Assembly (NCBI RefSeq): GCF_006345805.1
Contig: NC_043019.1
Location: 14,197,360-14,261,359 of the forward strand
From: Octopus sinensis
Taxonomy: Eukaryota
Direction of reading: 5' to 3'
Length of the DNA stretch: 64,000 nucleotides
Positions within the stretch are counted from its first letter, which is position 1. Each line of letters opens with the position of its first letter. A program made the position numbers and the translations under genes. Below the pieces are notes generated by a model. That model saw only the letters and a program-made list of their open reading frames with translations. It did not search any database and was not told the DNA's origin. Positions 56,817 through 61,070 of this stretch are shown here, piece after piece.

Positions 56817-57339
56817 CCGTAAATCCTCGAGTATAATCCGCATTTTTTCCCCAAAAATTTAAAGGTCAAAATCCCTAGTGCGTTCTATATACGAGGTTAA
56901 AAATGAAAAATATTTTCTAAGCAATGTCCAAGTCTCTATTTGCTGTCCAGCAATGTTTATTCAGACGCATTTTGAGATGTTGGGCGTGAAAATACCTTAA
57001 GCTAAGCCTGAAAGCAATGAAGTCATAAAAGAATCATCCATAACTTGCAGTAAGCAACATTTATCAAAATAAAAGTATTCAGAACACAGAATAACATGTA
57101 ACAAAAACAGTTTGCAAACATATTTACATTCCCATATAACAGTTAAGAACATCACCATTATTGTATTACGCATGCGCAGAAGTGTTTGTTCGACTAAGTG
57201 ATGCTGGCTTAATTATGCACAATTCAAGTTAGAGAAGGGGTGTGTATTATACACAAGGTTTAGGTTTTTCAGAGGTACAGCCTCCTAAAAATCCCCTGCG
57301 TATTATACTCAAGGGCGGACTATACTCGAGGATTTACCG
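56817..57339. mobile_element. Non-autonomous Tc1/mariner-superfamily (Tc2/pogo-type, CCGTA TIR) element with TA TSD
   Basis: ta|ccgtaaatcctcgagtataatccgc ... gcggactatactcgaggatttaccg|ta. Confidence 0.88.
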
Positions 57340-57756
57340 TATATATATATAATGTGTGAATGTGCATGGCCTAGTGGTTGGGGTGTTGCGATCGTGAAAT
57401 CGTGGTTTCAATTCCTAGACTGTTGTTTTCCTTTCTTTCACTTTGCTCTGAGATCATTTCAACATCTGACATGTGGCACATTTATGCACCTGTGGAGGCA
57501 ATATCGATTTAATGGAGGAAGCAAGCTAATGTATGGCACATGCATTTGATCACTATAAACAGAACCATTTGTACAGATTCTTCAGCAAGAAATAATGGCC
57601 CCCTTGTCCATCATCCAACAACAGAAGAGTCCATAACACACACACTATATATATATATATAGAAAATATTATTAGAGACAAAACCACTATTTTGCAAAAC
57701 AAACAAGGAAAGACTTAATCAATACATAAAATTTTAATAAATAGTAAAAAAAACCG

Positions 57757-57799
57757 CCACTACAATTGTTTCTTGTCTTGATCGACAATCTTCAGGTGG
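57757..57799 (-). ncRNA. Minimal type I hammerhead ribozyme
   Basis: ccac-CUGAAGA-uuguc gaucaa gacaa-GAAA-c aauu g-UA-gugg. Confidence 0.8.
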
Positions 57800-58180
57800 A
57801 CTTCCAATATTACACACAGTCTCATTGACATCATAGAACTGGAATAGCACGCCAGAAAAAAAGCATAACAGAAGTGAAATTGACGGTAAACACACAGTTG
57901 TGACTGCAAAACGGGCAAAGGAGATTCGGATAAGGGCGCAGTCCTCGGCCGTTCGCTCATTCTTCATGGTTATTTCGTTATATATATATATATGTGTGTG
58001 TGTGTGTATAATATATATATATATACTTTTATATTTTTAAGGTAGGTTTTGAGTGTGAGCCTGTCTGACCAAGCTTTGGTTTGGTGTAAAGTGGACGCTT
58101 GTTGGGTGAGCAAGTGCTGGGCCAACAAAAGCAGGTAGGGGTTTCAGATGGGTAAAGATATCCGTCAGTTGGTAATGTAG

Positions 58181-58213
<33 letters not shown>

Positions 58214-58647
58214 CAAGTATAAACACTCACTCAGTCACTCATACATACACACACAGGTCCGTTGAGTGTCGTCTCCAAGCAGTAGTAATAATCCTAACGG
58301 TTATATGTGTGTGTGGAGAATGTGGGACTTGGTTTCCGATGGTATCTGGACCGGAGGAAGTTGGTTCTTCCTTCCCACTTTTCACTACGAGTATTTTCGC
58401 CCGAAACAGCTGTGGGAGGCAGTGGCGGCGGTGGTGGTGGTGGCAATAAGTGGGGGTGGTGATTGAGCCCATGCGCCCCCACTTTTAGGCCTCATCCACT
58501 CCTCTTGGCTGCTTTTTCTTGTTTCTTCCCTCCTGACACCAAAAATGTCAGACGTGAGAATAGCGACAAAGGTAGAGAGGAGGAGGAGGAGCAGTTGTGA
58601 TGGTGTTGGTGATGATGATGGTTATGATGCTTGTGGCTGTGATAAGT

Positions 58648-58690
58648 CCACCTGAAGATTGTCGATCAAGACAAGAAACAATTGTAGTGG
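58648..58690 (+). ncRNA. Minimal type I hammerhead ribozyme (predicted cleavage after GUA at 58686)
   Basis: Stem I ccac/gtgg, core CTGAAGA 58652-58658, stem II ttgtc/gacaa, GAAA 58675-58678, palindromic stem III ACAATTGT. Confidence 0.8.
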
Positions 58691-58866
58691 CGGTTTTTTT
58701 TACTATTTATTAAAATTTTATGTATTGATTAAGTCTTTCCTTGTTTGTTTTGCAAAATAGTGGTTTTGTCTCTAATAATATTTTATAATATTTTACTATA
58801 AAATTGGATTTAATCCTAAATCTGATTTTTTCCCTGTAAATTTGGATTTATTCCCTAATATTTATT

Positions 58867-58909
<43 letters not shown>

Positions 58910-58911
<2 letters not shown>

Positions 58912-60590: not shown

Positions 60591-60790
60591 TGGATATCAC
60601 TAAAGTGACAGAGGGTACAAAGTGGTACTGGCATTGCTAGAAATAAGAGTGAAAATGACTCATTAGCCACAAGAGCACTCTCTTAATAAGCTGACAAGAT
60701 TGTGCTCTTGTGGCTAATGAGTTGTTTTGACTCTTATTTCTAGCAATACCCGTACCACTTTCTACCATCTGTCACCTTAGTGACATCTAT
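60589..60790. mobile_element. Foldback MITE (arms ~95 bp)
   Basis: gatatcactaaagtgacaga...ctcattagccacaagagcac is mirrored by gtgctcttgtggctaatgag...tctgtcaccttagtgacatc; TA flanks. Confidence 0.8.
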
Positions 60791-60870: not shown

Positions 60871-61070
60871 TATCATCAGTAAATCATAAATCTGAAAGAG
60901 AAGTACATTCTAACTTCTAGAGCAGTAGAGTATTTAGATATGGTTATGACCAATCTATGGGGTTGCCCAGGGTTTTGCATACATGAAGCACTTAGCTTTA
61001 CGGGTGTGAAACCCTTGGTAACTCCATAGATCAGTCATAACCATTTTTGTCTAAATATGTATATATATAT

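Follow-up and report, generated by a model that had tools for sequence, protein, structure and literature searches.

Inverted pLTRs, tails and hammerhead motifs are standard components of Penelope-like elements (PMC8557442, Craig et al. 2021). The Hydra-clade members described there combine a C-terminal GIY-YIG-type region with the motifs RxKWK and DKT, a CxCx5C linker, CxxC and CxH but no GxKF/Y, and they have a hammerhead in the pLTR, (TA)n targets, an inverted 5'-truncated copy and a tail of 30-40 bp; a 5'-UTR intron is recorded for Penelope and Chlamys-3. In vitro work on the Poseidon element of Anolis (PMC11167929, Frangieh et al. 2024) pointed to two internal starts of reverse transcription that define the tail, to extension of both target strands and to an uncleaved RNA as template, with a predicted dimer.

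Capture of a host gene by a Penelope element has been reported from Adineta vaga (PMC3846280, Arkhipova et al. 2013), where the introns were kept and an antisense template was proposed. Host exons also become joined to retroelements of other types. Exon trapping, together with retroposition, is known for SVA (MAST2-SVA_F1; PMC4859970), and trans-splicing has been proposed for 17 mRNA/LINE-1 chimeras (PMC11838501, a preprint). Non-LTR retrozymes carry a type I hammerhead of PLE origin in tandem ribozyme units (bioRxiv 10.64898/2026.07.22.740005).

Here we analyze a window of 64,000 nucleotides of Octopus sinensis DNA, in which a first inspection of the letters (the original prediction) had flagged two inverted arms with a hammerhead ribozyme in each. 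These arms and ribozymes are ordinary Penelope anatomy, but what they enclose is not: a host exon has been spliced onto the element there, and this main point had been missed. A search of the literature, with subscription papers mostly outside its reach and supplements excluded, found no spliced host capture by a Penelope-like element.

The family found in the window shares with the Hydra-clade elements all the protein and insertion features listed above and, with Penelope and Chlamys-3, the intron in the 5' UTR; compared with the published Hydra-clade description it has a long pLTR, an intron of 1.8 kb, a tail of 82 instead of 30-40 bp, about two thirds of the sampled arms in spliced form and host exons spliced on (PMC8557442). 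Its pairing of a short with a long 3' end matches the two reverse-transcription starts of Poseidon, but those lie inside the ORF, whereas both points lie upstream of the ATG here, and the Poseidon account, in the part available to us, describes no host capture, whereas a host exon is captured in the window (PMC11167929). In the A. vaga capture as in ours, pLTRs enclose host sequence that has been moved in trans, and the junctions are head-to-head palindromes; unlike there, the host introns have been removed here and the junction is a sense-strand splice (PMC3846280). As in SVA, an upstream exon is spliced to an acceptor of the retroelement and retroposed as its 5' extension, and the joining of an exon donor to the element acceptor holds for 10 of 10 captures with a located source. 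SVA depends on LINE-1 machinery, poly(A) priming and a single cDNA (PMC4859970), whereas the captures here have twin arms, no poly(A) and the acceptor of the element's own intron. With the LINE-1 chimeras they share exons that end at donors before long introns and source genes devoid of an intronic element (15 of 17 in LINE-1); those chimeras are old events with varied or missing acceptors (PMC11838501), in contrast to the fixed acceptor, the young family and the share of at least about 1% of arms seen here. The type I hammerhead of PLE origin is shared with the non-LTR retrozymes (bioRxiv 10.64898/2026.07.22.740005), but at this locus an inverted pair surrounds unique host sequence and no tandem ribozyme units are present.

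Structure of the insertion

The stretches 57663-57803 and 58644-58784 are perfect reverse complements over 141 bp, exactly as had been claimed, and the repeat can be extended by 0 bases at both ends. Its limits (57663..58784) had been taken for the ends of the whole element; yet element sequence continues on the right to 58866, 82 bp past the repeat, and on the left inward to 57808. The insertion as a whole spans 57663-58866 and lies inside (TA)n. Its arms, which are two head-to-head copies of exon 2 of the 5' UTR of a Hydra-type Penelope-like element (Table 1), differ in length (146 bp on the left, 223 bp on the right), the left arm having the short 3' end of the element and the right arm the long one. 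The left junction is also found, as a loose end, in contigs of one DNA-like public run; this argues against an assembly artefact, although the run may be the assembly's own source.

Elsewhere in the window, two long near-perfect hairpins (60640-60740 and 60940-61045) give weak matches to microRNA models and are likely small inverted-repeat elements. Short inverted ends at 56839-56880 and 57290-57340, recognized by eye, flank about 500 bp and likely delimit a small insertion of the DNA-transposon type.

Table 1. Features of the insertion and its flanks (positions within the window).
Feature	Positions	Strand	Basis
(TA)n target, left flank	57646..57661	.	sequence; family copies terminate in (TA)n
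Left arm: element exon 2, beginning with its first base at 57808 and ending at the short 3' end	57663..57808	-	
Minimal type I hammerhead, predicted cleavage after 57761	57757..57799	-	
Splice junction, host donor/start of element exon 2	57808..57809	-	source reads on GTGAGT; element intron ends TTTTAG here; donor used in RNA-like contigs
Captured 3' part of host Frag1/PGAP2-like exon 1 (5' UTR + 53 codons)	57809..58643	-	source C13:68963179-68964025(+)
Predicted 77-codon fusion reading frame (53 host + 24 element codons)	57734..57967	-	
Right arm: element exon 2 minus its first 5 bases, to the long 3' end	58644..58866	+	
Minimal type I hammerhead, predicted cleavage after 58686	58648..58690	+	
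Tail: element sequence between short and long 3' ends; in full copies it precedes the ORF start	58785..58866	+	
(TA)n target, right flank	58867..58911	.	

Hammerhead motifs

Each arm contains stem I (CCAC/GUGG), CUGAAGA, stem II (UUGUC/GACAA), GAAA, the palindromic ACAAUUGU and a GUA site. The core CUGANGA/GAAA/NUH together with stems I and II was confirmed in both arms, in line with the two minimal type I hammerheads announced for them, and these two were the only matches when the entire window was scanned on both strands with a loose motif. Among 221 arms examined in the genome, 190 are intact. The palindromic stem III allows a double hammerhead. In secondary-structure prediction the dimer fold is the co-fold minimum (-22.0 kcal/mol), and the monomer ribozyme fold (-5.4 kcal/mol) lies above the monomer minimum (-6.5 kcal/mol); the suggestion of a dimer-type minimal hammerhead thus agrees with the predicted optimum. 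In the commonest stem III variant (127 of the 190 intact arms), all 8 pairs would be retained via G-U. The hammerhead model search that had been proposed as a check gave no hammerhead family in Rfam at E<=10. We did not accept this silence as a refutation, because such scans frequently miss minimal ribozymes whose stem III has 2 bp.

Sister subfamilies were retrieved with a search pattern that left stem II unfixed (361 matches; e.g., L325:5100-5380). They have a CUGAUGA core and another loop II, occur in head-to-head pairs too, and differ in the length and sequence of loop II but retain the stem II core of 4 bp.

A Penelope-like family with an intron in its 5' UTR

The 20-nt start of exon 2 has 2,988 exact matches in the 2.7-Gb assembly. 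When 40 of the 636 candidates from a search with the arm were scored, 42 full-length matches at 98-100% were obtained, a result that sustains the view of the arms as young Penelope-like pLTR sequence. The arms thus turned out to be common, and the locus is without a tandem array. Copy L043 displays the pLTR-ORF-pLTR partial tandem organization, with the RT followed by a C-terminal endonuclease. Copies terminate in (TA)n at either of two points: 93 of the arms examined have the short 3' end, 90 the long one, 22 run into the ORF and 4 end otherwise. The (TA)n target, the tail at one end and the inverted 5' copy are all found in the family.

The 5' UTR of the element consists of a short leader, GTAAGT, about 1.8 kb of further sequence, TTTTAG, and then exon 2 with the ribozyme. 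This GTAAGT..TTTTAG intron measures 1806-1833 bp in eight of nine copies with a leader (the figure for the ninth spans two copies), and it ends exactly at the inner end of the arm. We sampled the leader in 82 arms near 70 loci of a subtype with 129 matches, omitting 3 arms known to be foreign. The leader was spliced in 51 of them, 28 had kept the intron and 3 had altered leaders; hence, spliced sense RNA is a common template of the family.

Motifs place the family, putatively, in the Hydra clade. Natural pieces of the ORF (L294, L043) contain RIKWK, DKT, YRDD, CxCx5C, VYIG, CxxC and CxH and no GxKF/Y, which are given as Hydra-clade features (PMC8557442). Pfam searches with the element proteins gave no RT or GIY-YIG match, and 20 ORF-linked copies contained no unbroken ORF (the longest has 491 codons), so that the assignment is one by motifs. 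Homologues of the element protein number 84, mostly of about 700 aa, and the named ones come from octopods.

Two other families were seen along the way. At L045:6785-8587 (-), an open stretch of 601 codons belongs to another Hydra-like element, with 40% identity over 339 aa to the RT region of the element studied here. A separate young family with tandem units of about 403 bp occupies (TA)n at L274-L277 and many other places; a loose scan found no hammerhead in it.

The interior of the insertion is a host exon

Genome searches with the 835-bp interior gave 106 candidates, 40 of which were scored, the remainder being simple repeats. The sole other match among those scored is at C13:68963179-68964025, and no second insertion with this interior was found among them. 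Interior and C13 source are identical at 820 of 859 alignment positions, the differences being 3 substitutions and 36 gap columns in simple repeats, and the source locus is without arms. The interior has no long ORF. A His-rich frame within it was considered as a 3' coding end and rejected after exon 2 had been located.

On the sense strand, the copied part of the C13 source ends right before GTGAGT; in the window, this end of the host exon adjoins the first base of element exon 2. Contigs from three sequencing runs (two guessed to be RNA, one unlabelled) leave the genome at the same C13 donor. Their continuation, the next host exon, lies 123 kb downstream, behind AG, and carries an in-frame Frag1/PGAP2-like domain, with a match to Pfam Frag1 at E 1e-16. 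In a fourth, DNA-like run, element sequence is found at the C13 donor point. Since the donor is used in contigs and the acceptor of the element's intron falls at the same base, the junction is a splice between a host donor and the element acceptor. It follows that a spliced RNA served as template, in which the first exon of a host gene from another chromosome preceded the element sequence. The chimeric junction was not seen in the RNA-like contigs; as contigs drop rare forms, this absence carries no weight.

Spliced captures elsewhere in the genome

We screened the genome for [ACG]AG directly before the exon-2 start and recovered 30 arms from 22 insertions; the same letters 2 bases further in occurred once. 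Foreign sequence is present in 20 of these 22 insertions with an exon-end-like junction. Set aside were L091, a plain inversion junction, and L092/L093, where the element's own ORF is joined. Source searches with 10 of the 20 foreign-junction insertions located 8 last exons, all of which end at GT; with the window and one further capture this makes 10 out of 10, at a GT background of 5.8% per site. The rhodanese-like coding piece joined to exon 2 in L094 (L094:1030-1503) had no second match in the assembly, and for L113 an internal exon but no last exon was located. Five captures consist of several exons with the introns removed, namely L103 (six pieces across 27 kb), L120, L099, L096 and L101; these multi-exon sequences are processed host RNAs. 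In total, the genome holds at least nine further such captures besides the window. The 30 arms amount to about 1% of the 2,988, in a screen that covers AG-ending junctions only, and 3 foreign arms are known among 100 listed for the 129-match subtype.

Several of these loci have peculiarities of their own. In L099, a GT-type boundary connects 138 nt of the ~403-bp tandem family with the first host exon. The source last exon in L304 differs from L096 by a 26-nt indel and several substitutions, with the preceding exon 98% identical. L115 and L119 carry, as judged by eye, the same fragment resembling LTR-retrotransposon pol at the exon-2 start, and their partner arms keep the intron. The L092/L093 insertion (C2:66799900-66801050) is a retrozyme-like multimer with three tandem 408-nt units of exon 2 plus ORF start, each with a hammerhead, and an inverted arm. 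There is no GT at the site of its self-junction in 21 ORF-linked copies, and its interpretation as a back-spliced circle is therefore unsupported.

Probable twin priming on a single RNA

We have high confidence that the window contains a spliced host-element chimera in a twin-primed insertion of a Hydra-type Penelope-like element, irrespective of how the chimeric RNA came about. This reading draws on direct observations: the identity of the arms, the element intron, the host source, the splice boundaries, the pairing of short and long ends and the recurrence elsewhere. In the RNA, the donor of the host first exon is spliced to the acceptor at which the 5'-UTR intron of the element ends. A (TA)n site was likely cut by the element enzyme, and each of the two DNA ends then likely primed a cDNA on the chimeric RNA. 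The cDNA of the left arm would have started at the short site and run through the ribozyme and 835 nt into the host exon, while that of the right arm would have started at the long site and halted 5 nt before the junction; the 3' ends of both cDNAs would then have been joined head to head. The ribozyme left this template RNA uncut.

Head-to-head pairs are the routine insertion shape of the family, with interiors from 11 bp to >1 kb. A long and a short end are combined in 46 of 50 pair entries, a set in which two insertions recur, some ends are cut by the locus edge and short interiors are over-represented; two of the exceptions are such edge cases. All seven pairs from the [ACG]AG screen have the same host exon in both arms, at differing lengths, and share their subfamily letters. 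No pair mixing a leader with an intron was found among the pairs examined, a sample that favours short interiors. Because both arms share the same rare chimeric junction, the inverted pLTRs likely stem from two primings on one RNA, and the joining of their cDNA ends head to head is the simplest reading. L115 and L119, with one foreign and one intron-keeping arm each, run counter to a single template there. Fold-back self-priming was rejected as the sole source of inversion, since the longer arm is the short-ended one at this locus as well as in L103 and L095, while the long-ended arm has extra 3' sequence. At the right junction of this locus, 3 bases are missing relative to a simple annealing at 5 nt of microhomology.

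Alternative readings of the insertion

The original prediction had interpreted the locus as a retrozyme or a non-autonomous element in which the terminal inverted repeats are functional and their ribozymes would cut the transcripts of either strand. We consider this highly improbable. Both ribozyme motifs are intact and their dimer fold is the predicted optimum, but the interior is a host exon that is single-copy among the 40 of 106 candidates scored, its one other genomic copy being the host source; the arms are unequal and tandem units are absent from the locus. Nor do the outward ribozymes point to a design for both strands, given that inverted repeats of this kind are the ordinary head-to-head product of insertion in the family. 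Equally little probability attaches to a joining of host mRNA and element RNA by template switching of the RT or by RNA ligation, with no splicing at the junction. Template jumps are common at inversion junctions of element copies, L091 is such a junction at the very same base, and the self-junction of L092/L093 lacks a GT. Jumps of this kind, however, fail to explain ten GT donors in ten captures together with the exact position of the acceptor, and the captures stop at internal exon ends, not anywhere in the mRNA.

How the spliced RNA arose is the more evenly balanced question. Exon trapping in cis, the trap being an element copy within the first intron (123 kb) that has been lost or is unassembled here, is in our judgment the most likely route, favoured by a little over even odds, and trans-splicing, in which the host 5' splice site would be linked to the acceptor on an independent element RNA and the product then retroposed, follows closely as a credible, somewhat less probable origin of the RNA. 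Scans of 60-320 kb downstream of seven source genes (320 kb for the C13 gene, 60-215 kb for six others; two more genes were scanned for 10 kb only) found no matching acceptor-bearing copy in any of the seven, so that the cis source element of an SVA-type exon trap is missing from these genes in this assembly and the cis route must invoke loss. The 320 kb downstream of the C13 gene, including all of intron 1, contain two truncated remnants, neither with the acceptor. A same-strand acceptor copy 27 kb downstream of the donor on C26 was discarded as a trap for its other subfamily letters and its lack of a long end. The same goes for a copy on C10 (83%, 45 kb downstream), which belongs to an older subfamily without the acceptor.

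These absences speak for trans-splicing, and so do others: none of the 57 exact ORF-linked acceptor copies lies on the same strand within 2 Mb downstream of nine source genes, no downstream position on C13 is held by any of the 23 exact acceptor-bearing copies that share the subtype of the window, and the 5-kb flanks of the three unplaced ones among them do not match the C13 region. One C14 gene was captured three times, with different exon ends and arms of two subfamilies. The downstream introns span 123 kb and 94 kb where measured; the element's own intron is frequently left unspliced, and the host 5' splice site waits in a 123-kb intron. Trans-splicing has likewise been proposed for LINE-1 (PMC11838501). 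Against it, two captures of the C14 gene share a variant (129 matches versus 2,988 arms), as if from a single trap, and the scans reach 60-320 kb with exact patterns that miss altered copies. About 1-3% of arms is, moreover, a high rate for unspecialised trans-splicing. Traps that disrupt genes would be rare, heterozygous and purged; their absence from one haploid assembly is to be expected, and for this reason we place the lost cis trap ahead of trans-splicing. It is accordingly a tentative proposal that host pre-mRNAs with long introns are regularly trans-spliced to the 5'-UTR acceptor of this family, accounting for about 1-3% of its insertions, and that the products are retroposed, with a single sense RNA copied twice to give palindromic retrocopies.

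Implications

The template at this locus was a sense, spliced and uncleaved RNA, which speaks against the idea of an antisense template put forward for A. vaga (PMC3846280). Penelope-like elements make intron-less retrocopies of host genes, whereas the literature, in the parts consulted, stresses the retention of introns. With a fixed acceptor, a young age and dozens of cases, the family makes the choice between trapping in cis and trans-splicing directly testable. Should trans-splicing prove true, these insertions would document in the genome that trans-splicing takes place in the germ line, and they would reveal a new way in which chimeric retrogenes can form.
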